Assembly (NCBI GenBank): GCA_048939015.1
Contig: JBHLPW010000043.1
Location: 1,799 to 46,670, forward strand
Reading direction: 5' to 3'
Source: Promethearchaeota archaeon
GTDB lineage: Archaea; Asgardarchaeota; Lokiarchaeia; Sigyniarchaeales; SOKP01
DNA: 44,872 bases
A program made the position numbers and the translations under genes. Positions 9,501 through 29,163 of this stretch are shown here, piece by piece. Each line of letters starts with the position of its first letter. Within the stretch, counting starts at the first letter, position 1. The notes beneath the pieces were generated by a model. The model did not search any database. It saw only the letters and a list, made by a program, of their open reading frames with translations, and was not told the origin of the DNA.

Positions 9501-11465
9501 ATTTTAAGGCAAGTTTATGTTTATAGAGGCAATGAAATTTTATATTATAGGCATTTTGGAAAGGCTCTAAAACAAGAGGTAATAGATCTTCTAGTTGAAG
9601 ACATCAATAATGAAGCTTTAATAAAATCTGAATCTAAAATGAATTACCATGATTATTACAAATTTAGAGTATCCTATATTACAAATAAAGAAAATAATCT
9701 TATTTTTTTATTTGTAACAAGTTTAACTGATAAATTTGAAAACATAAAAAAAGAATTAGAAAAATGTCAAGATGAGTTCTTAAATTTATTCGAAGATATC
9801 TTACAACACCGTTTTGATGCAAAAACTTTTGAAGTTTTTGATCCCACCATCGATTCTATCCATAGAAATTTAAGACCAAAAATATCTCTTGTGGGATTTT
9901 CTGGAGTTGGGAAAACTACCATTACTAAATTAATTAAAGCTGATGAAATTCCAATGCAGCATATACCAACAATAACGGGAGATATTGCGACTATAAAAAT
10001 TGGAAAATTACACTTTCATTTGTGGGATTTTGCAGGTCAAGAACAATTTAGTTATCTATGGAACAATTTTATTAAGGGAAGTGATGCCGTTCTATTAATC
10101 ACTGATTCCACATTAGAAAATATTGAAAAGAGTAAATATTTCTTAGAACTAATAAATGAACAAGCACCTAACGCTCAATCTGCTGTAATTGGTAACAAAC
10201 AAGACTTAAATGGTGCATTGAATCCCGTTCAAATTGAAAATATTCTGGGTTTAAAGGCATATTCAATGATTGCTTTGGAACCAAAAAACCGTGATAAAAT
10301 GATCCAAATTATTGCTGATATCTTAGAAATGAGTGCAGAGGTTTCCCCTCTTTTAAAACCATTACTTGAAAGAGATAAATTAACAGAAGAAGCAGTAAAA
10401 GCACTCAAAGATGCTGATTTTAACAAAGCTGCATTTTTATTCGATAAAATTAGTGATTTATGTATAGAGTTAGGAGATGATTCATTGGGAAGAGAATTCT
10501 TTAATAAATCACAAAAAATTAAAGACATGCTTGAGAAGGTCGGTGCCCCTCAACCAACACCAGCTGCTGCAATAGAGCCTGAAATGGGTACAATTCCTAT
10601 TACTGATAAAAAACCAGTAGAAATAGAGAGACAGATATCTAAAGAATCAGAATTGTCACCTATCCCCCAACTAAAGACAGAAGAAAAATCAGTAGAACAA
10701 CAAATATTTAGAAAACCATCAGATATTGTAGCAACTTCGAAAAAAGAAGAAACTCTAAAAGTAGAGACTCAAGAAGAGAAAGAAATTAAAACACCAATGG
10801 GCACCAAGATTAAACCAGAAGGAATAAGTTTAAAATTGAATCCAGAAGATTTTATGGTTAAAACAAGACCAAAATCAGTAACTTTTGTCCCTAAAGACGC
10901 ATCAACTAAACTTAAAATGGCTTCAGACAGACCTGCTAAAGATGTTGAAGAACCGATAGCCCCTAAACCAGTTTCACCACTAAAATTAATGGATGAAAAG
11001 GAAAAATTAAAACCTCCTCCCCCAAAAACTCCTATGATTTCAAAAATCGCTCCTGAACCTAAAATACAACCTACTCCTATTGCTTCTAAGCCCCCACTTG
11101 AACCTAAAATAGAACCAACTCCCATTTTTGCTAAGACCACACTCAAACCTAAAATACAAACAACTCCACCACTTCCAAAAGTTACTCTTGAACCTAAATT
11201 AGAATCCGTTCCTCCAATAACCAAAGAAGCCAAAACGGAATCAACACTTTTGGAAGAGAAGCAGAAGGAAGATATCAAGAAATCCATAATAGAATTAAAA
11301 TTAAAGAAAGCAGATATATCTAAGATGTTATTGGATCTTGATATGAAAGAGCTTACTGGGGAAATCACATCAGAAGAACTTGAAGAAAAGAAAAAGAAAA
11401 TTGATGTATATCTCAATAAAATAGCTCAAGAAATTCAAGAATTAGAAAGTCTTTTAAAGGATTAG
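9501..11465 (+). CDS. Multidomain small GTPase: longin-like domain + Arf-like G domain + helical (TPR/SNAP-like) module + Pro-rich linker + C-terminal coiled coil
   Basis: G1 GFSGVGKT, G2 PTITG, G3 WDFAGQ, G4 NKQD. The frame is open 46 codons upstream of ATG 9639 (ILRQVYVYRGNEILYYRHFG...), giving the first strands of a longin-like domain. The start (ATT 9501 vs ATG 9639) is uncertain. Confidence 0.8.
   Translation: MLRQVYVYRGNEILYYRHFGKALKQEVIDLLVEDINNEALIKSESKMNYHDYYKFRVSYITNKENNLIFLFVTSLTDKFENIKKELEKCQDEFLNLFEDILQHRFDAKTFEVFDPTIDSIHRNLRPKISLVGFSGVGKTTITKLIKADEIPMQHIPTITGDIATIKIGKLHFHLWDFAGQEQFSYLWNNFIKGSDAVLLITDSTLENIEKSKYFLELINEQAPNAQSAVIGNKQDLNGALNPVQIENILGLKAYSMIALEPKNRDKMIQIIADILEMSAEVSPLLKPLLERDKLTEEAVKALKDADFNKAAFLFDKISDLCIELGDDSLGREFFNKSQKIKDMLEKVGAPQPTPAAAIEPEMGTIPITDKKPVEIERQISKESELSPIPQLKTEEKSVEQQIFRKPSDIVATSKKEETLKVETQEEKEIKTPMGTKIKPEGISLKLNPEDFMVKTRPKSVTFVPKDASTKLKMASDRPAKDVEEPIAPKPVSPLKLMDEKEKLKPPPPKTPMISKIAPEPKIQPTPIASKPPLEPKIEPTPIFAKTTLKPKIQTTPPLPKVTLEPKLESVPPITKEAKTESTLLEEKQKEDIKKSIIELKLKKADISKMLLDLDMKELTGEITSEELEEKKKKIDVYLNKIAQEIQELESLLKD
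11055..11234 (+). repeat. Four degenerate 45-bp (15-aa) tandem repeats in the GTPase linker
   Basis: EPKIQPTPIASKPPL / EPKIEPTPIFAKTTL / KPKIQTTPPLPKVTL / EPKLESVPPITKEAK; units start at 11055, 11100, 11145 and 11190. Confidence 0.85.
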
Positions 11466-19711: not shown

Positions 19712-21007
19712 ATGATTAAAGAATATGAAATGAAATTGACTTACAAATTCAGGTATCCTAAAACTGAACATTTAGATATCCTATGTTCAATTTCTAAAAA
19801 ACTTTATAATCAGACAAATTGGTATATACGCCAGCATTTTTTTAATTTAGAAAATTGGCTTCGTTATCAAGATTTAAATTTCATGTTAAAAACTTCTGAC
19901 CATTATAAATTATTGAAAGCTCAAACATCCCAACAGATTATTAGAAAGATAGATGAGAATTGGAAAAGTTTCTTTTATGCCATTAAAGAATGGAAAATAA
20001 GTCGAAAAAAATTCAAGGGAAGACCAAAACCACCAAAATATAAGAAAAACTGTAACAATCTTTTGATCTTTACCAACCAGAATAGTAAAATTGAATATAA
20101 TTTAATTATCTTAACTATGTCTCAATTATTTAAGAAAAGATTTCCTGAATTTGAAAATCCAATAGAAATATCTATACCTCCATTTAAAAATAAAAATTTT
20201 GAGCAATATCAACAAATAAGGATCCTGCCGAGAAAAAGCTTTTATGAAATCGAAATAATTTACGAAGAAGACAAAAAGAAATCAAAATTAGATGAAAATA
20301 AGTATTTATCAATCGACTTCGGATTGAATAATTTAATAACTGCTGTAGAAAGCATTAATTCGAAACCACTTATCATTTCTGGAAGAATTTTAAAGTCCAT
20401 TAATAGGCAGTGGAATAAAAGAAAAGCAATACTTTACTCTATCAAAGATAAACAATTGTTAATATCATCTAAAAGACTTGAAAAAATCACAATAAGGAGA
20501 AATTCAGTAATAAAGGATTATTTACATAAAACTGCGCAATTTGTTGTAGGTTATTGTTTAAAAAATCAGATAGGTAATATTTGCTTAGGTGAATTAAAAT
20601 ACATAAAACAAAGAATAAGATTGGGTAAACGAATTAACCAGAATTTCGTGAATATCCCCATTCAAACACTTAAACAAATGATTACTTATAAAGCTCAGCT
20701 ATTAGGAATTAAAATCCATATAGTTGATGAGTCTTACACATCAAAATGCAGCTCTTTAGATTTAGAACCTATCCAAAAACATATAAGGTATATTGGAAAA
20801 CGGATCAAACGAGGATTATTTAGAGGTTCTAATTACCTCCTCAATGCAGACGTCAATGGAGCATTAAATATCCTCAGAAAAGTAGTCGGAGATGGTTTCA
20901 TTCAAAATCTATCCGATAGAGGTTACTGGTTTCAGCCTGTGCGAATAAGGGATTTATTCCAAACTTCGCATGAACAATTTTTATTAAAATCTGTTAATAT
21001 TATTTAA
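19712..21007 (+). mobile_element. tnpB: TnpB RNA-guided endonuclease, second solo IS200/IS605-family element
   Basis: KKLYN, WKSFF, SIDFGLNN, DESYTSKCS, NADVNGALNI; no tnpA. Confidence 0.95.
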
Positions 21008-21122: not shown

Positions 21123-24100
21123 TTGCAAAATCCAGAAGAATTAGCCCAAGAAGCTTTAAAATTTTTAGATATTGCGCAAAAATTTGAAGAAGGGAAAGAT
21201 GTAGAAAAAGCAATTTCGAATTATCAGAAAGCAGCTGAACTTCTCAAATCTAGTGGTTTTTTGATGCATAGGATTCAGGAGATCTATGACAGAATTAGTG
21301 AATTGAAAGAGTTTATAAAACAGGATAAATTATATCAACGATTTCAAACGAAAGCTCAAATGGAACAAGTACAAGATCAAGCATTTAGTTTATTAGAAGG
21401 AGCAAAGAAGCTAGAATTTGATGGTTTTATTGAAGATGCTATCCAACAAAATTTATCCGCAATTAATCTATTAGTCCAAGCTGGATGGTCTGAGGCTCAA
21501 CTAGAAAATATTAGATCTAAAATAAATAAATTAGCACAAGAAGCACAACAACAAAAAAGTATTCAAAAATTCGAAAAACAGGAAGTAGAAGTAGAACAAC
21601 AAGCTCCTTCAGTGTTACCCGATGAAAAGCCTCAAGTTGTTGGTATGTTTGGAGCGAAAACGAGTGTTGAAAAGGCAGAAATTATAGAAAAATTTCGAAT
21701 ACAGAAGAAACACGAAGAAGATATACAAAGCCAAGCATTTTCCCATATCGACGCTGCTAAAATGTTTGAAAAGGACAAAAAATATGATAATGCGATAATG
21801 AATTATGAAAGAGCTATTGAATTATTAGATTCTATAGGTTGGGGAGCTCAAATTCAAGAAATCAAAATTATTGTTGAAAAACTTAAAAAAGATAAAGCAT
21901 ATTTTGAGGCTCTTCAGGCTAAACAAAAGCAAGAAGCAACACAAATTACAAGTGATATTGAAGAACAAAAAATAGTATTAGAAAGAGAAGCTGAATCAAG
22001 AAAGGAAAAACTAATGGAATTTGAAGTGAAGAAGCAACATGATGAGCAAATCCAAATGAGAGCATTTAATCTAATTGATATTGGAAATAGACTTGAAAGA
22101 GAAAAAAAATATGATTCTGCAATCGAAAAATTAAATGAAGCGGTTCAACTTCTTAGATCCATAGAATGGGATTCATATGTGAAACCAGTTATAAGTCTAA
22201 TTGAGGGTATAAAAAATAAGCAAAAAAGAGAAGTAGAAGCTGAACAAATAAAAGAAAAACGGCAAAAAAATTTAATGATACTTCAAGATTCAATCTCAAA
22301 AAAGCAAAAAGATCAAATAATTGGATCAGCAAAAGAACTTGATGCTAAAAGAAAAGAGTTTGAAGCGAGGAGAAGTGAGGAAGTAAAGAGAGAAGAGGAT
22401 CTATTTGCAGTGTTAGATAATGCAGATGAGATTCTAAAAAGTAAAAAGTTTGATGATGCAATTAATGAATACAATAAAGCGTTATCAATTCTTAAAGATT
22501 TAGGCTCTGGTTGGGAGGCTTATCAAACAATGATAAAAAATACAATTTCAAATATAGAACTTATGAAACATACGCAGTATACAAAGGAATATGAAGAACA
22601 GAAAAAAGTAGAGGATAGAAGTCGAGAAGAATTAGAATTCCAAAAACAAATTACACAACTTTTAAATAAAGAGCGTGAGCGCTTAAAAAAGAAGGAAATT
22701 ATCGTAAAAGATACTGAAAAAGAAATTAAAGATTTTGAACAAAGAAGGAATATTGCTTTTGAATTCTTAGATTCTGCAATTGATTTCTTTATACAAGGAA
22801 AATATGAAGAAACTATTACAGCATATCAAAATGCAGCTAATATTTTTGCTGAGATTCAATGGACTGATGAAATTCCACTAATTGAGGATTCTATAAATGA
22901 AGTTGAAAATCTGCAAAAGCAACAAAAAATCGATAAGCAAAAAAAATTCCAAGCGTCTATAGAAAGGGAGAAAGAAGAAGAAAAATTTCAAAAGCAAATT
23001 TCAAAACATTTACAGCAAGAACGTGAAAAATTAAGGAAAAAGGAGATTGAATTAGCAGAACTTGAAAAAGAAAAGGAATATAGAGAGAATAAAAGAAAAG
23101 CAGGCTTTAAATTATTGGATCAAGCTCAAGAAGAAGTGAAACAAAACAATTTTGATAAAGCAATCGAAATATTACAATATGCAGTTAACTTTTTTGCTGA
23201 TATTGAATGGCAAGATGAAATTACATTGATCCAGAATTCTATTGTAGAAATTGAAAATAAGAAGAGAGAAGCAGAACTACAAAACCAAATAAAGTTACAA
23301 ACGGAATTAGAGCGGGAAAAACGAGAAAAAACATTCCAAGAACTTATTACAAAAGAAATGAAAACCCAACGCGAAAAGTTTAAGGAACGAGAAATTATTT
23401 TAAGAGAAAAGGAGAAAGAACTTGCATATCGAGAAGAAAGGAAAGAGGAAGCATTTAATTTGCTCGAGAAAGCTCAAGATTTTGTTTCTCATAGAAAATT
23501 TGACGAAGCACTGGATATTTATTATAATGTTGCAAATATTTTTGCTCAAATTCAATGGACTGAAGAAATTTCAGTTATTCAAGATGCTATAAATGATATT
23601 GAAAATAAAAAGAGAGAAGATGAGCTAAATAAACAAAAAAATCTACAGAAGGTAATTAAAAGAGAAGCAGAGGATAAAGCATTTATAGATTTGATTAAAT
23701 ATCAAAGAGAGAAGAAAAAAGAAGGTTTATTAAGAGAAAAAGAGATGCAGCAAAAGCAAAAAAGTTTGTCTGCTCAGAAACTAGTAAAACAGAAAGAAGG
23801 TTTTAGTTTGATTGAAGATGGAGATGTTCTACTTGAAGCTGAAAATTATGATGAAGCTATAAATAATTATCGAAAAGCATTAGATATTTTAAAAGAAATA
23901 GGGTGGGGAGAAGCTTATTTAAAATTATTGCATGATACAATTCAAATGATCTCGTTTAAGAAACAAGAAAAGCAAAATGAAAAACAAATAGAATTTGATT
24001 TGTCATTAAAACATCAAAAAGAGGAGGATTTGTTCCAAAAGAGAATCAGTGAGAATATTCAGATAGAGCGGGAAAGAATAAAAACTAAGGAAATAGAATT

Positions 24101-27100
24101 ACAAAGAAGAGAAGATCTTGTAAAGTTAATGGGAGAACGTAAGTTAGAGGCATTTAAGATAATGGATGAAGCGGAAATTCTGTTAAATAAAGGAGAATAC
24201 GATAAATCAATTGAGAGTTATCATAAAGCTGAATTGATTTTAAATGAGATAAACTTTCCAACAACTGCTATTAGAGAAATGATTCAAAAAATTCAACAGA
24301 GAAAAAGAGAGGATGATTTAAATAAATTTAAAGAAGTCGAAATGAAAGTTAGGAAGGACCAAGAGGAATTATCATTTCAACAGCGCATTCTAGAAAACAT
24401 GAAACTTGAACACGAAATAATGAGGGAAAAACAAAATGAGTTATTGAAGCAAGAAGAATTAAAGATGATTCAGGAAAATAAGAAGGAAGAAGCATTTAAT
24501 TTCTTGGAAGAAGCTCAAAAACAAATCGAAATGGGCAAGTTTGATGAAGCAATCAAGTCATACCAAAATGCTGAACAAATTTTTAAAGAAATTCAATGGG
24601 ATAGTGAAATTGATTTAATTAAGAATTCAATTACTGTTATTGAAAACAAAAGACACGAGGCGGAACTAAAAAAGCAACAGGAATTAGAAATTGCTTTAGA
24701 GAGAGAAAAAGAAGAAGAAGAATTTCAACAAAGAATTAATGAGGAATTATTAACACAGAAAGAGGAGTTAAAAAAGAGAGAGATTATATTTAGAGAAAAA
24801 GAAAAGGAAATTGAATTTCTTGAGAAAAGAAAAGAAGAGGCATTTAAAATATTGGATAAAGCTCAAATTTTTCTTTCTCAGAGTAAATTTGATGAGACTA
24901 TCGAATTATATCATGATGCAGCTAATATTTTTGCTCAAATTCAATGGATTGATGAAATTTCGATTATTAATCAAGCAATAAAGGATATTGAGAATAAAAA
25001 AAGAGAAAAAGATTTACTAAAGCAAAAGTCAATTCAAGAATCTCTTGAAGTAGAAAAGGAAAATTATGCATTTATGGAACAAATAAGAATTCTTAAAGAA
25101 AAGGAAGAAGCAAAAGCATTGGAGGAAAAAGAATTAATTAAAACTCAAAAAATGATTACTGCTCAATATATGGCAACTCAACAAGATGCATTTAAATTAA
25201 TTAACAATGGATATTCGTTGCTTAACCAAAAGAATTATGATCAAGCTCTAAACAACTATCAAAATGCAATAAGACTTCTTACTCAAATTGGATGGACATC
25301 TGATTATTTAGTATTACTCCAGGATACAGTTAAAACAATCGAAGTTAGAAAAAGAAAAATTGAACAAAAGAAAGAAAAAGAAATTCAATTAATAAAGAAG
25401 CAACAAGAAGAAGAAAAACGATTCCAGCAAAAGATTGCTGAAAGTATGCGAATAGAACAAAAAAGATTAAAATCGAAGAAAATTCAAATCGAAGAACAGG
25501 AAAAATTACTCCAACAAATGGAGCAACGTAAAGTGGAAGCATTTAATTTAATGGATGAGGGCGAGAAACATTTCAATAAAAAAGATTATTCTCAAGCGAT
25601 TGAAAAGTATAGACAAGCAGAATTACTTTTAAATGGAATTGGTTTCCCCACCAATTCTGTGAGAGAAATGATTAATAAAATTCAAGAGAAAAATAAAGAA
25701 GTATTAATTGCCAAACAAAGGGCATTGGAACTTCAGGTTCAAGCAGAAAAAGAAGAAATTCAATTTCAGCAAAAAGTAACAGAAAGTTTGAGGATACATG
25801 AAATTAAATTGAAATCTAAGCAAGCAGAAGTTGAAAAAATAAGGGAATTAAAAGAGTATATGGAAAGAAGGAAAGATGAAGCTTTTAATCTTCTTGAAGA
25901 CGCAGAAATTTTTATGAATCAATCTCAATATGATAAATCTCTCGAATATTATCATGGAGCTGAATTAATTTTGAATGAAATTGGTTATCCAACAGAATCT
26001 ATTCGAGAACTAATCGTCAAAGTACAAGAAAAGAAACGAGAATATGAGCTTCGAAAGCAAAAAGATTTGGAAATATCTATACAACGAGAACGAGAAGAGT
26101 GGAACCTTAAGCGAAAAGTAGCAGAGGATTTACGCGTTGAGAAAGAACGATTAAAAGTAAAAAAGTTAGAAATTTTAAAGAGAGAACAACTTAAAGAAAA
26201 ACTGGAGCAAAGAAAGGAACAAGCTTTCAAAATTATAGATGAAGGAGAACGTTTCCTTAAGGAAAAAAATTATGATAATGCCTTGGTATGTTATCGAAGA
26301 GCAGGCATAATTTTAAATGAATTGCAATTTCCGACAGATTCTATTAATAATACTATGTTTAAAATTAAAAAAATTCAAAAACAGAAAGAAGAAGAAGAAA
26401 ATTTAAAATATCAAAAGGAAATAGAGAGATTAGAAGAAGAAAGAGCATTAAAAGCACTGATTGACGAAAGAAAGAGGCAAGAAAGAGAAAAAAGGGAAGC
26501 TCAGCAACTAGCATTGAAACAACGAGAAAAAATGATCCAAGAACAAATGAATGTAAGAGAATCTGCTTATTCTCTATTGGAGGAGGCAGGAAAGTATTTA
26601 AAATTCCATATACCAAATTATAATGAAGCGATTTCACTTTATATTCAAGCTAGACGGATTTTAGAAGAGAATATTGGTTGGGAGCCGGAGATAAACAATC
26701 TAAATGGATTAATTAAAGATCTACAACAAGAACAAGCGAAATTTCTCGAAAAGAAAAGATTAGAAGAACAAGCTCATTTACAGAGACAGAATGAATATGC
26801 TTTATTCCAAGAAGAAGTTAAAAGGAGACGTATAGAACAAGAAAAGTTAAAACGAGAGCAAGAAAAGCAGTATAGAACTTTAATCCTAAAAAGGCAACAA
26901 ATCGATAAGTTAAGAGATGATGGTTTAAAATCTATTGACGAAGGTAAGAAATGGACAGCATACCATAATTTTGAAAAAGCTTATCAATATTTTAGTGATG
27001 CAATTTCAAAATTTAGAGAAATTGGATGGGATGATGAAATAAAATACATTCAGACTGAATTAAAAAATACTAAAATATTAGAGGAACGCGTTAAAAGAGA

Positions 27101-27491
27101 GGATCAAAGGATTCAATCTATACAAGAGCAATTAGATAAGCAAAGAGAGTTACAAATTCAACGAAGAAAAATTGAAGAAACAAGATTAAAGGGTACAATT
27201 GGCGAAGTGAGCCAATTAGCAGATGAAGTAGTAGGTTTGATTGAAAAAAGAAGGAAAGAGCAAAAATTAGCTGAAATACAAGAAAGAAAGAAAATTAAGG
27301 ATGAAGCAAAACATTTTCGTAAAGAAATGGGCGATTTAATAAAAATGAAACAAGAACTTATGGAAGAAGTCAACAGAAAGGAAAAAACGGATCTTAAATT
27401 CCAAGAAGACCTGCAAAAGGCTAAAGAAAGAGAAGAAATTGAAAATCTTAAAAGGATGATTAAAGAAAAAGGGAAAAAGAAAAAAAGTTAA
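21123..27491 (+). CDS. Giant (2122 aa) repeat protein: 18 MIT/TPR-like helical modules linked by charged alpha-helical/coiled-coil segments
   Basis: Recurring 'AF.LL..A......(Y/F)D.AI..Y..A..I...I.W..EI..I...I' with a period of 114-119 aa over most of the array; E/K/R/Q-rich linkers; no obvious TM segment or signal peptide; TTG start. Confidence 0.85.
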   Translation: MQNPEELAQEALKFLDIAQKFEEGKDVEKAISNYQKAAELLKSSGFLMHRIQEIYDRISELKEFIKQDKLYQRFQTKAQMEQVQDQAFSLLEGAKKLEFDGFIEDAIQQNLSAINLLVQAGWSEAQLENIRSKINKLAQEAQQQKSIQKFEKQEVEVEQQAPSVLPDEKPQVVGMFGAKTSVEKAEIIEKFRIQKKHEEDIQSQAFSHIDAAKMFEKDKKYDNAIMNYERAIELLDSIGWGAQIQEIKIIVEKLKKDKAYFEALQAKQKQEATQITSDIEEQKIVLEREAESRKEKLMEFEVKKQHDEQIQMRAFNLIDIGNRLEREKKYDSAIEKLNEAVQLLRSIEWDSYVKPVISLIEGIKNKQKREVEAEQIKEKRQKNLMILQDSISKKQKDQIIGSAKELDAKRKEFEARRSEEVKREEDLFAVLDNADEILKSKKFDDAINEYNKALSILKDLGSGWEAYQTMIKNTISNIELMKHTQYTKEYEEQKKVEDRSREELEFQKQITQLLNKERERLKKKEIIVKDTEKEIKDFEQRRNIAFEFLDSAIDFFIQGKYEETITAYQNAANIFAEIQWTDEIPLIEDSINEVENLQKQQKIDKQKKFQASIEREKEEEKFQKQISKHLQQEREKLRKKEIELAELEKEKEYRENKRKAGFKLLDQAQEEVKQNNFDKAIEILQYAVNFFADIEWQDEITLIQNSIVEIENKKREAELQNQIKLQTELEREKREKTFQELITKEMKTQREKFKEREIILREKEKELAYREERKEEAFNLLEKAQDFVSHRKFDEALDIYYNVANIFAQIQWTEEISVIQDAINDIENKKREDELNKQKNLQKVIKREAEDKAFIDLIKYQREKKKEGLLREKEMQQKQKSLSAQKLVKQKEGFSLIEDGDVLLEAENYDEAINNYRKALDILKEIGWGEAYLKLLHDTIQMISFKKQEKQNEKQIEFDLSLKHQKEEDLFQKRISENIQIERERIKTKEIELQRREDLVKLMGERKLEAFKIMDEAEILLNKGEYDKSIESYHKAELILNEINFPTTAIREMIQKIQQRKREDDLNKFKEVEMKVRKDQEELSFQQRILENMKLEHEIMREKQNELLKQEELKMIQENKKEEAFNFLEEAQKQIEMGKFDEAIKSYQNAEQIFKEIQWDSEIDLIKNSITVIENKRHEAELKKQQELEIALEREKEEEEFQQRINEELLTQKEELKKREIIFREKEKEIEFLEKRKEEAFKILDKAQIFLSQSKFDETIELYHDAANIFAQIQWIDEISIINQAIKDIENKKREKDLLKQKSIQESLEVEKENYAFMEQIRILKEKEEAKALEEKELIKTQKMITAQYMATQQDAFKLINNGYSLLNQKNYDQALNNYQNAIRLLTQIGWTSDYLVLLQDTVKTIEVRKRKIEQKKEKEIQLIKKQQEEEKRFQQKIAESMRIEQKRLKSKKIQIEEQEKLLQQMEQRKVEAFNLMDEGEKHFNKKDYSQAIEKYRQAELLLNGIGFPTNSVREMINKIQEKNKEVLIAKQRALELQVQAEKEEIQFQQKVTESLRIHEIKLKSKQAEVEKIRELKEYMERRKDEAFNLLEDAEIFMNQSQYDKSLEYYHGAELILNEIGYPTESIRELIVKVQEKKREYELRKQKDLEISIQREREEWNLKRKVAEDLRVEKERLKVKKLEILKREQLKEKLEQRKEQAFKIIDEGERFLKEKNYDNALVCYRRAGIILNELQFPTDSINNTMFKIKKIQKQKEEEENLKYQKEIERLEEERALKALIDERKRQEREKREAQQLALKQREKMIQEQMNVRESAYSLLEEAGKYLKFHIPNYNEAISLYIQARRILEENIGWEPEINNLNGLIKDLQQEQAKFLEKKRLEEQAHLQRQNEYALFQEEVKRRRIEQEKLKREQEKQYRTLILKRQQIDKLRDDGLKSIDEGKKWTAYHNFEKAYQYFSDAISKFREIGWDDEIKYIQTELKNTKILEERVKREDQRIQSIQEQLDKQRELQIQRRKIEETRLKGTIGEVSQLADEVVGLIEKRRKEQKLAEIQERKKIKDEAKHFRKEMGDLIKMKQELMEEVNRKEKTDLKFQEDLQKAKEREEIENLKRMIKEKGKKKKS
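23103..25880 (+). repeat. Higher-order duplication: two copies of a four-module block, 1389 bp (463 aa) each
   Basis: The conserved Phe codons of modules 7-10 (23106, 23454, 23802, 24153) each recur exactly 1389 nt later (24495, 24843, 25191, 25542) with matching module subtype. Confidence 0.9.
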
Positions 27492-27579: not shown

Positions 27580-29163
27580 ATGACGGAAAAGACAAATAAT
27601 ATAATTAAGTCTCGTATGTATGCTAGACAACAATTAATTGAAGGTTGGGATCAAGAGACTATTGATAATGGAACTATAATGATTATCGGAATTGGTGCTC
27701 TAGGTTGTGAAATAGCAAAGGATTTTGCTTTAATGGGAATTGGAAAGTTGATCCTTGTTGACCTAGATACCATTGAAACCTCTAATTTATCACGGCAAAT
27801 GCTTTTTAAACCTGGTGATGAGGGTCGTCCTAAAGCTGAGGTTGCAGCAGAAAGATTGAAAGAAATGAATCCATATCTAAAGGTCGATTATTATTTTGAA
27901 AAACTCCAGAAGTTACCAATGACTCTGTATGAAGAATCTGATGTGATTATAGCAGCCTTAGATAATTTTAACGCGAGACTAGATTTAAACAAAATATGTT
28001 TAAGATTGAAAAAACCAATGATTGAAGGTGGAACTGTAGGATTTGAGGGGCACGTCCAGATTGTTATCCCAGAAGGTTCTGGTTTACATTATAAAAATAA
28101 GGAAAATGAAGTTGAAAAACTAGTTGAATCTAGACTCTGGGAGATTAGTGAAAGGGAATATCCTGATTATTTCCGAGCTCAAAAAAGAATTGAGGAATTA
28201 GAAGAAGAAATTGAGAATATAAAAGCAGAGGATATAACACCAGTAATTAATAAAATTAGAAAAGAAATTGAAAATGTTTTTGATTGGAAACATGCTCCAG
28301 AAGTACTTGATCTAACTCCTTGTTATAGATGTCTAGTGCCAATACCTCCTGCTGACGATAAACTCGTTGCAGCTTGTACATTAAAGGGGTTACCACGAAA
28401 TAGAAATCACTGTGTAATAAAAGCTGAAGTAGAATTTGAGAAAAAAAATGGTCATAAACCCGATTTAAATTTAAATGACGAAGTTATAAAATTAAAAGAA
28501 TTAGCACAAGAAGAATTAATAAAACTTCGAGAGAGAGTTTTTAATGAAAATGTTTCACCTGAAAAAAAAGAGACATTATCTGAGGAGGAGATTGAGGAAT
28601 GGAAGAAAAACATTGAAGAAACATTTGGACCAGACTATAAATTTGAAGAAATGGAGAATATTCTCGGTAATAAAATTGCTGCTATACAATCAGTTAGCTC
28701 TGTTATTGCCAGTGTACAATCTCAAGAAGCTTTAAAACTTCTTTTTAGAGTAAAAGGAAGAGATATAGGTCCACCTATGGATCCACCTTATGTAAATTAT
28801 AATGGTATATATGGATTATTTGATCATTTAGACATTATTAAAAGGGAAGATTGTTTAGCTTGCGGCAAGATTGAAGGAGAAGAAAATGTACAAATTGTAG
28901 TACCATTTGATGCGGACGTCGGTTATATTTTTACAGCAATGAAAGTAACTGGTTACGAGTTAGATCCTGAATTGTGGATGATAACAAATCCTATGACCAA
29001 AGAAATTTATTGGAATCCATATATGCCTTCTTTAAAAGACCCTCACATTAAGTTAACTTCACTTAAAATAAGAAGTAATGATATTGTATCTCTAACCCCT
29101 CTGGGAAAAGCTTTAACTGAGTCAGAAATTAAGAAATTTAATGTAATAATTGCTTTTATGTAG
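27580..29163 (+). CDS. Ubiquitin-activating enzyme E1-like protein (ThiF/MoeB adenylation domain with UBA3-like catalytic Cys domain)
   Basis: YARQ, GIGALG, DLDTIETSNLSRQMLF, ALDNFNAR, CYRC and CLAC zinc pairs, catalytic 'AACTLKGLPRNRNHCV' (Cys266) matching the eukaryotic CTxxxxPxxxxHC motif. Confidence 0.92.
   Translation: MTEKTNNIIKSRMYARQQLIEGWDQETIDNGTIMIIGIGALGCEIAKDFALMGIGKLILVDLDTIETSNLSRQMLFKPGDEGRPKAEVAAERLKEMNPYLKVDYYFEKLQKLPMTLYEESDVIIAALDNFNARLDLNKICLRLKKPMIEGGTVGFEGHVQIVIPEGSGLHYKNKENEVEKLVESRLWEISEREYPDYFRAQKRIEELEEEIENIKAEDITPVINKIRKEIENVFDWKHAPEVLDLTPCYRCLVPIPPADDKLVAACTLKGLPRNRNHCVIKAEVEFEKKNGHKPDLNLNDEVIKLKELAQEELIKLRERVFNENVSPEKKETLSEEEIEEWKKNIEETFGPDYKFEEMENILGNKIAAIQSVSSVIASVQSQEALKLLFRVKGRDIGPPMDPPYVNYNGIYGLFDHLDIIKREDCLACGKIEGEENVQIVVPFDADVGYIFTAMKVTGYELDPELWMITNPMTKEIYWNPYMPSLKDPHIKLTSLKIRSNDIVSLTPLGKALTESEIKKFNVIIAFM

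Follow-up and report, generated by a model that had tools for sequence, protein, structure and literature searches.

Frozen unit length and variable unit number in a giant MIT-like repeat protein of Promethearchaeota

A 44,872-nucleotide stretch of contig JBHLPW010000043.1 (positions 1,799 to 46,670 of the forward strand) from the Promethearchaeota archaeon assembly GCA_048939015.1, hereafter called the window, encodes a giant protein of 18 three-helix modules, and comparison of the protein sequences supports well the view that the length of its repeating unit is under selection. The same comparison does not support a 463-amino acid functional period of the titin/nebulin kind, an analogy drawn in an earlier reading of this DNA (the original prediction). 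We consider it probable that the protein is a modular rod carrying evenly spaced, phase-locked and putatively peptide-binding modules, in which unit length is strongly selected and the number of units can evolve, a block duplication having left the super-repeat as a by-product.

The giant open reading frame (21123..27491, + strand, as are all features below unless stated otherwise) begins with TTG and encodes 2122 amino acids, in which MIT/TPR-like modules are joined by charged connecting helices. The window has a G+C content of 29–31%, and the coding strand of the giant gene is strongly purine-rich. Using a hidden Markov model (HMM) built from the clearest modules, we located the 18 modules at amino acids 3, 79, 197, 306, 419, 537, 653, 769, 885, 1002, 1116, 1232, 1348, 1465, 1579, 1693, 1807, and 1926. 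The spacings from module 6 to module 17 are 116, 116, 116, 117, 114, 116, 116, 117, 114, 114, and 114 amino acids, which reproduces exactly the series in the original prediction, and a further 119 separate module 17 from module 18. The three loop subtypes that it had described, A (W..EI), B (GW...YL.LL.DT), and C (F/Y-P-T), were likewise present, and from module 6 onward they follow the order A,[A,A,B,C],[A,A,B,C],C,C.

We collected full-length orthologs from the same genus, first from 19 and then from 36 species. All 36 proteins are 2116–2124 amino acids long, contain 18 modules, retain the pattern AAABCAABCCC, and have spacings identical to those of the window's protein from module 6; the alternative spacings of 113/118 and 112/119 near module 5 come from a shift of the HMM anchor rather than from an indel. 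Aligned with MAFFT, the 36 proteins were 51–94% identical in pairs (median 57%), and the LG tree was 7.38 substitutions/site long. Gap intervals in this alignment were confined to amino acids 148–158 and 265–288, a 1-amino acid indel at 439, and the C-terminal end, leaving amino acids 441–2122 (22443..27488) free of indels. The 19-ortholog set (LG tree length 4.96; median identity 57–58% across the two sets) was likewise gap-free from amino acid 441 to the end. The same protein offers an internal contrast, in that the linkers between modules 2 and 3 and between modules 3 and 4 do vary in length; these non-helical, G/P/S-rich stretches (21564..21986) are its main length-variable parts. Separately, we observed a conserved non-helical motif, D-E-K-P-Q-V-V-G-M-F-G-x-K-S-S (consensus of the 36 orthologs), at amino acids 167–181 (21621–21665) of the first of these linkers, which may be a docking motif.

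As a control we examined the neighbouring RACo gene from the same genomes, which showed 3 gap intervals in 419 columns over a tree length of 3.77 (0.0019 per site per substitution/site). At this rate approximately 24 events would be expected in the indel-free zone of the giant protein, where we saw none. A second control, a longin-GTPase with a low-complexity linker, showed 57 gap intervals in 523 columns over a tree length of 9.09; its rate of 0.012 would predict approximately 150 events in the same zone. The neighbouring ubiquitin-E1-like gene was rejected for this purpose as too conserved (86% identity, indel-free). As a side observation on the longin-Arf-like GTPase (9639–11465), all 57 gap intervals among its 30 orthologs fell in the hypervariable linker at approximately amino acids 280–450, and its N-terminal 280 amino acids contained none.

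The spacing also held outside the genus. Matches to the giant protein at E ≤ 1e-40 were present in 101 of 120 other genomes and in 12 of the 13 genera searched, and we added 20 proteins from other genera to the 36 same-genus orthologs to make a set of 56 family proteins. Every one of its 571 central spacings was 116, 117, or 114 amino acids. The original prediction had held that length was conserved while sequence drifted, and hence that spacing was selected, and had named freely variable linker lengths among orthologs as the observation that would speak against this; the indel-free zone in 36 species and the 571 spacings bear out the former, and the latter was not seen. Alignment of 96 central units from 8 genera showed that A (116), B (117), and C (114 amino acids) units differ only in the loop between helix 2 and helix 3, and the stretch running from helix 3 through the linker into the following helix 1 therefore has the same residue count everywhere.

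The number of units, on the other hand, varies. Alongside the 18 modules of the window's genus, most other genera have 14 (AAABCCC, in one case AAACCCC), part of one genus has 20 (AAABCCAAABCCC, with a six-module block of 693 amino acids), one genus has 25 (AAAABCCAAABCCABCCC), and other lineages have 17, 10, or 7 in other patterns. In these sequences, the family changes in length only by whole units or blocks, within a range of 7 to 25 modules.

Looking further afield, we found 284 representatives that matched a module-linker-module profile among 1.84 billion. In 135 more distant superfamily representatives, 116 amino acids was a sharp mode (145 of 604 spacings), and we also observed spacings of 104–131 amino acids, long arrays at 127 amino acids (116 + 11), and back-to-back modules at 72–80 amino acids. 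The sister-family homolog L040, a 2228-amino acid open frame from single-contig genomes, has 11 units in a row at a period of 127 amino acids, followed by units of 116. Arrays at 127 amino acids were also noted in representatives P0087, P0151, and P0133, the 11-residue surplus being equivalent to approximately three helical turns. Representative P0023 (2064 amino acids) has 17 modules spaced at 116 or 117 amino acids throughout, indicating that giant evenly spaced arrays arose more than once in the superfamily. The window's genome itself encodes a second, paralogous giant MIT-like protein (a 2017-amino acid open reading frame on contig C12), whose orthologs in the same genus range from 1514 to 2128 amino acids owing to a variable central region without recognisable modules, and whose C-terminal modules are still 116 amino acids apart.

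These comparisons bear on the main alternative, in our view possible but rather unlikely, namely that the constraint is purely intrinsic. According to this explanation, the unit of approximately 116 amino acids would be a cooperative fold or one half of a self-paired rod, with neither an external periodic partner nor a ruler function, and its length would be frozen for folding or self-assembly because indels would break helix phase or chain register, much as in spectrin or alpha-actinin. It would fit the finding that 116 amino acids is modal across the whole superfamily, paralogs included, and that length changes by whole units, as it does in alpha-actinin rods. It is harder to reconcile with the members spaced at 104–131 amino acids and the long 127-amino acid arrays, which indicate that the fold tolerates other lengths. 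With other spacings tolerated in the superfamily, and the paralog variable in total length, the absolute invariance of the orthogroup points to selection rather than to an inability to vary.

We turn now to the 463-amino acid super-repeat, of which the giant protein contains two copies. Block 1 comprises modules 7–10 (A,A,B,C; amino acids 653–1115; 23079..24467), and block 2, its copy at +1389 nucleotides, comprises modules 11–14 (A,A,B,C; amino acids 1116–1578; 24468..25856). On the 5′ side of the duplicated block lies module 6, an A-type unit of 116 amino acids (22731..23078), and on the 3′ side lie the C-type modules 15 and 16, of 114 amino acids apiece (25857..26540), and then modules 17 and 18 with a helical tail of approximately 196 amino acids ending in a polybasic run (26541..27491). 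This run, K-G-K-K-K-K-S, falls within amino acids 2113–2122 (27459–27488), and the tail measures 195–198 amino acids across the family regardless of module number, apart from 236 in one 17-module protein.

An offset of +463 amino acids gave by far the best ungapped self-match (48% identity over 400 amino acids), the runner-up being +116 at 33%; the match extended from approximately amino acid 610 to 1150. Smith-Waterman alignment, at standard or cheap gap costs alike, paired amino acids 603–1095 with 1066–1558 over 493 residues without a gap, and the modules formed reciprocal best pairs in block order (M7/M11 49%, M8/M12 52%, M9/M13 40%, and M10/M14 43% identity). The self-comparison that the original prediction had proposed recovered the recurrence it described, at exactly +1389 nucleotides in diverged DNA. 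Between the two blocks, identity was 46% for amino acids and 63% for nucleotides, with synonymous divergence at pS 0.665 and dS ~1.6, and conserved residues used the same codon at a frequency of 0.63, compared with 0.58 expected at saturation from codon usage alone. Synonymous sites are therefore saturated and the duplication is old. Tandem Repeats Finder detected no long-period repeat in the DNA, in line with this divergence.

It is scarcely conceivable, then, that the super-repeat reflects a recent duplication, gene conversion, or an artefact of metagenome assembly through collapse or expansion of repeats. The source genome is indeed metagenome-assembled, as are those of the close orthologs (labelled Promethearchaeota or Promethearchaeia), and we found no evidence supporting such an origin. 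We rejected it on the divergence of the blocks, in both saturated dS and amino acid identity, and on the recovery of this 18-module architecture from 36 independently assembled genomes, single-contig ones among them. The original prediction had itself listed a recent duplication of low synonymous divergence as an outcome that would count against it, and this is not what we observed.

In a tree of units, modules 11–14 of the window's genus nested inside the module 7–10 clades of other genera, and in the 20- and 25-module proteins the duplicated units clustered with their own lineage, which points to independent duplications in different genera. The 463-amino acid block is specific to the window's genus, the similar duplication in one other genus being probably independent, and a single ancient tandem duplication of modules 7–10 in this genus's lineage would account for modules 11–14. 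The register of the two blocks would since have been kept only through very strong purifying selection against indels in every unit, acting across the family. Taken alone, a gap-free alignment of 493 amino acids at 46% identity is unremarkable under an enzyme-like indel rate, at which we roughly estimate that one event would be expected; the strength of the case for frozen length comes from the orthologs and not from the comparison within the protein.

An alternative close to the original prediction is that the four-module period of 463 amino acids is itself the selected unit, matched to the long-range periodicity of a filament (for example actin or ESCRT-III), as in titin and nebulin. The recurrence at +463 is exact and gap-free despite the diverged DNA, the pattern AAABCAABCCC is kept in every same-genus ortholog, and a hinge-like break occurs once per block, before each B module, all of which would suit such a period. 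Against this, there are two copies only, most sister genera lack the block altogether (14 modules) and others have the 693-amino acid block or other patterns, the module tree indicates independent duplications, and four units of approximately 11 nm (approximately 44 nm, as estimated below) would match no period that we can name. The period of 463 is exact because it is the sum of frozen unit lengths (116 + 116 + 117 + 114), and it represents the duplication of one lineage. We therefore consider a selected four-module period very unlikely. The spacing selection argued for in the original prediction stands, as selection on the length of the single unit, and its comparison with titin/nebulin super-repeats does not; we identified no periodic partner.

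With respect to the nature of the modules, both MIT and TPR relationships emerged. The whole protein scored 104.5 bits against Pfam MIT (PF04212; 30-bit cut-off), a score summed over several partial matches. Of the single modules, 8 of 18 matched at E < 0.01 (best E 8.5e-06, module 1 at 24.3 bits) and none reached 30 bits; in the genome scan, the best per-module match was 23.6 bits, also under the cut-off. TPR_1 (67 bits) and TPR_2 (69 bits) were both above their Pfam cut-offs for the whole protein, and the 34-amino acid helix-turn-helix of a TPR was present. However, each module contains one TPR-like hairpin, and neighbouring modules lie a helix of approximately 50 residues apart in both of our models, which is not the arrangement of a stacked TPR superhelix. 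A profile search of solved structures returned consensus TPR designs over approximately 22 residues and, weakly, the MIT domains of Vps4A and Sulfolobus Vps4.

The AlphaFold2 model of a single module was a three-helix bundle (residues 2–25, 29–45, and 49–88) with a predicted local distance difference test (pLDDT) score of 83.5. The top Foldseek rows for this model were mostly MIT domains (VPS4A/B, NRBF2, Vps4p, and Sulfolobus Vps4), at non-significant E values of 0.096 or above; NRBF2 aligned with a template modelling (TM) score of 0.66–0.70 and a root mean square deviation of 1.8–1.9 Å. VIA Z-scores were 9.2–9.8 for the MIT domains of calpain-7, NRBF2, Vps4, and spartin, and TPR proteins tied at Z ~10. 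Submitted to Foldseek, a 551-amino acid multi-module model gave local MIT and TPR rows but no match at E ≤ 0.001, and an ESM Atlas look-up returned unnamed or TPR-labelled clusters with low recognition. We call the modules MIT-like and do not claim membership in the MIT family.

The multi-module model, covering amino acids 640–1190, had a pLDDT of 82 and a predicted TM (pTM) score of 0.29. Each unit in it consists of helix 1, a turn, a 17-residue helix 2, a turn, and a continuous helix of approximately 90–93 residues whose far end serves as helix 1 of the following module; continuous helices were modelled at residues 58–150, 291–383, and 409–497. The only exception was the linker ahead of the B-type module 9, in which a helix break or hinge was predicted at amino acids 869–882 (23727..23768), pLDDT falling below 50 over amino acids 864–882. 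It is followed by a conserved LSAQNL motif, and the homologous site precedes module 13.

The linkers are 51% charged (D/E/K/R), with 0.3% G+P and 26% large hydrophobics, and are nearly as conserved between species as the modules. Their hydrophobic residues are sparse and recur at the same conserved positions from unit to unit, among them a mid-linker F-x-x-x-I, as would be expected of a packing interface under an intrinsic constraint; the low-confidence hinge linker is also length-invariant, which agrees with that explanation too. The linkers show no clear canonical heptad pattern, which does not: hydrophobic periodicity at 3.5 residues was weak (z 1.9 relative to shuffles), with a one-per-heptad seam only in the C-terminal half. 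Among i/i+4 pairs, those of the same charge were depleted (z −3.3), E→K/R pairs were not enriched (z −0.3), and K/R→E pairs had a z of 2.1. With this hydrophobic content and no dense E(i)-K/R(i+4) network, the linkers do not correspond to a single-alpha-helix domain. A homodimer prediction for module 11-linker-module 12 scored 0.00, which is no verdict and evidence neither way. The conserved mid-linker sequence F-x-x-[R/K]-I-x-x-x-[L/M] was also considered as a MIM1-like motif, by which modules might bind the linkers of other chains, and was set aside; its spacing departs from that of the MIM1 consensus.

Downstream of the giant gene, after 89 nucleotides, lies a ThiF-family ubiquitin-E1-like gene (27580..29163). 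We found the E1 gene downstream at 34 loci in 10 genera; these include 25 of the 36 loci from the same genus, and the gene was present in all genera that were inspected again over longer flanking sequence. Several genera have an open reading frame of approximately 500–530 amino acids on the opposite strand between the two genes. An E2 gene is located 5 kb away, and the conserved E1 neighbour suggests a link to the ubiquitin system. A TnpB-like open reading frame (OrfB_IS605 and Cas12f-like TNB domain; 19712–21007) lies between RACo and the giant gene in the window's genome only; since RACo is directly upstream in 18 orthologous loci, this resembles a recent IS insertion.

To return to the modular rod that we favour, each three-helix module would be joined to the next by one helix of approximately 93 residues, made up of helix 3, a charged linker of approximately 50 residues, and the next helix 1. 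The fixed residue count of this connecting helix would set both the distance and the rotational phase between neighbouring modules. From residue counts, at 0.15 nm per residue, a 93-residue helix spans approximately 14 nm, from which approximately 2.6 nm is subtracted for the antiparallel helix 2; the rise would thus be approximately 11 nm per unit, and the whole chain could reach approximately 0.19 µm if straight. The chain is likely to be flexible at its two length-variable N-terminal linkers and ahead of every B module. Such a protein would act as a multivalent scaffold of evenly spaced, equally oriented docking sites, for which either some structure of regular arrangement or further copies of the protein itself could serve as partner. 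Equating approximately 11 nm with two actin subunits (5.5 nm each) was rejected as numerology, the rise being only an estimate from residue counts.

Several observations weigh against this rod. Helix continuity comes from AlphaFold2 only, at a low pTM, and AlphaFold2 tends to turn sequences rich in charge into long helices. The linker does not clearly belong with either single-alpha-helix domains or coiled coils, and helix continuity by itself hardly explains why the low-confidence hinge linker that precedes every B module should be invariant in length. Assignment to MIT is not decisive, given that single modules fall under the Pfam cut-off and structural Z-scores tie with those of TPRs. Total length varies between genera, and therefore no single universal distance is measured. 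Finally, we found no partner for the giant protein and no ESCRT gene within the window; the canonical Vps4/ESCRT-III cluster, with Vps4 and one ESCRT-III gene, is on contig C10, and contig C107 carries another ESCRT-III gene, both ESCRT-III proteins being of the Snf7 family.

A more far-reaching extension, which we regard as speculative and unlikely, is that the protein is an Asgard-specific rod of up to approximately 0.2 µm whose evenly spaced, phase-locked MIT-like domains decorate a periodic cellular polymer (ESCRT-III, actin, or a lattice of its own) and couple it to the neighbouring ubiquitin-E1 system. It would then correspond, in a prokaryote, to the filament rulers and adaptors of eukaryotes, and the number of modules would determine how long it is in any given lineage. 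No known organisms are more closely related to eukaryotes than the Asgard archaea, whose cytoskeleton, ESCRT machinery, and ubiquitin system are studied for clues to the origins of eukaryotic cell architecture. We found no such protein described in the literature searched for Asgard proteins with multiple MIT domains or giant repeats, and E1-linked giant proteins with 7–25 MIT-like modules at undrifted spacing would represent a scaffold of a new kind in Asgard archaea. The family also offers an unusually clean system for the study of selection on protein length, with sequences drifted to approximately 50% identity, a free number of units, and an unchanged unit length, the spacing having been held over approximately 12,000 inferred substitutions in this genus.

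Compared with known systems, the protein resembles nebulin and titin rulers in its fixed-length modules, its grouped module subtypes, and its very great length. It differs from them in that their super-repeats are many, are conserved between species, and are matched to a known filament period, whereas here there are two lineage-specific copies. Spectrin, alpha-actinin, and dystrophin rods share tandem three-helix units whose last helix runs on as the first of the next unit, and spectrin-superfamily rods, too, keep their units constant in length and grow or shrink by entire repeats; to our knowledge, however, the invariance seen here is stricter than in spectrin repeats. We found no Pfam spectrin match, and with a helix 2 of 17 residues and a connecting helix of approximately 93, the bundle is short, and in the model some 50 residues of every connecting helix belong to no bundle, unlike the spectrin repeat of approximately 106 amino acids, in which all three helices span the bundle. 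The linkers resemble the ER/K spacers of myosin VI/X and caldesmon, being highly charged, free of G and P, predicted as lone helices, and depleted in same-charge i/i+4 pairs, but differ from them in their large hydrophobics at conserved positions and in the lack of enrichment of E→K i+4 pairs. The module itself may be likened to MIT domains (Vps4, NRBF2/Atg38, and spastin, and the tandem pairs of LIP5/Vta1, calpain-7, and ULK3) in that it is modelled, like them, as an asymmetric three-helix bundle of approximately 70 amino acids, with a TPR-like helix 1/helix 2 signature. In NRBF2/Atg38, helix 3 runs into a long helix, as it does in the model here, and phmmer gave a weak match to Atg38 over the MIT domain and this helix. 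The MIT proteins described so far carry a single MIT domain or a pair and bind ESCRT-III tails in several modes, some of them binding other ligands (PMC9477494); the giant family differs from them in its 7–25 modules and in carrying no attached enzymatic domain.

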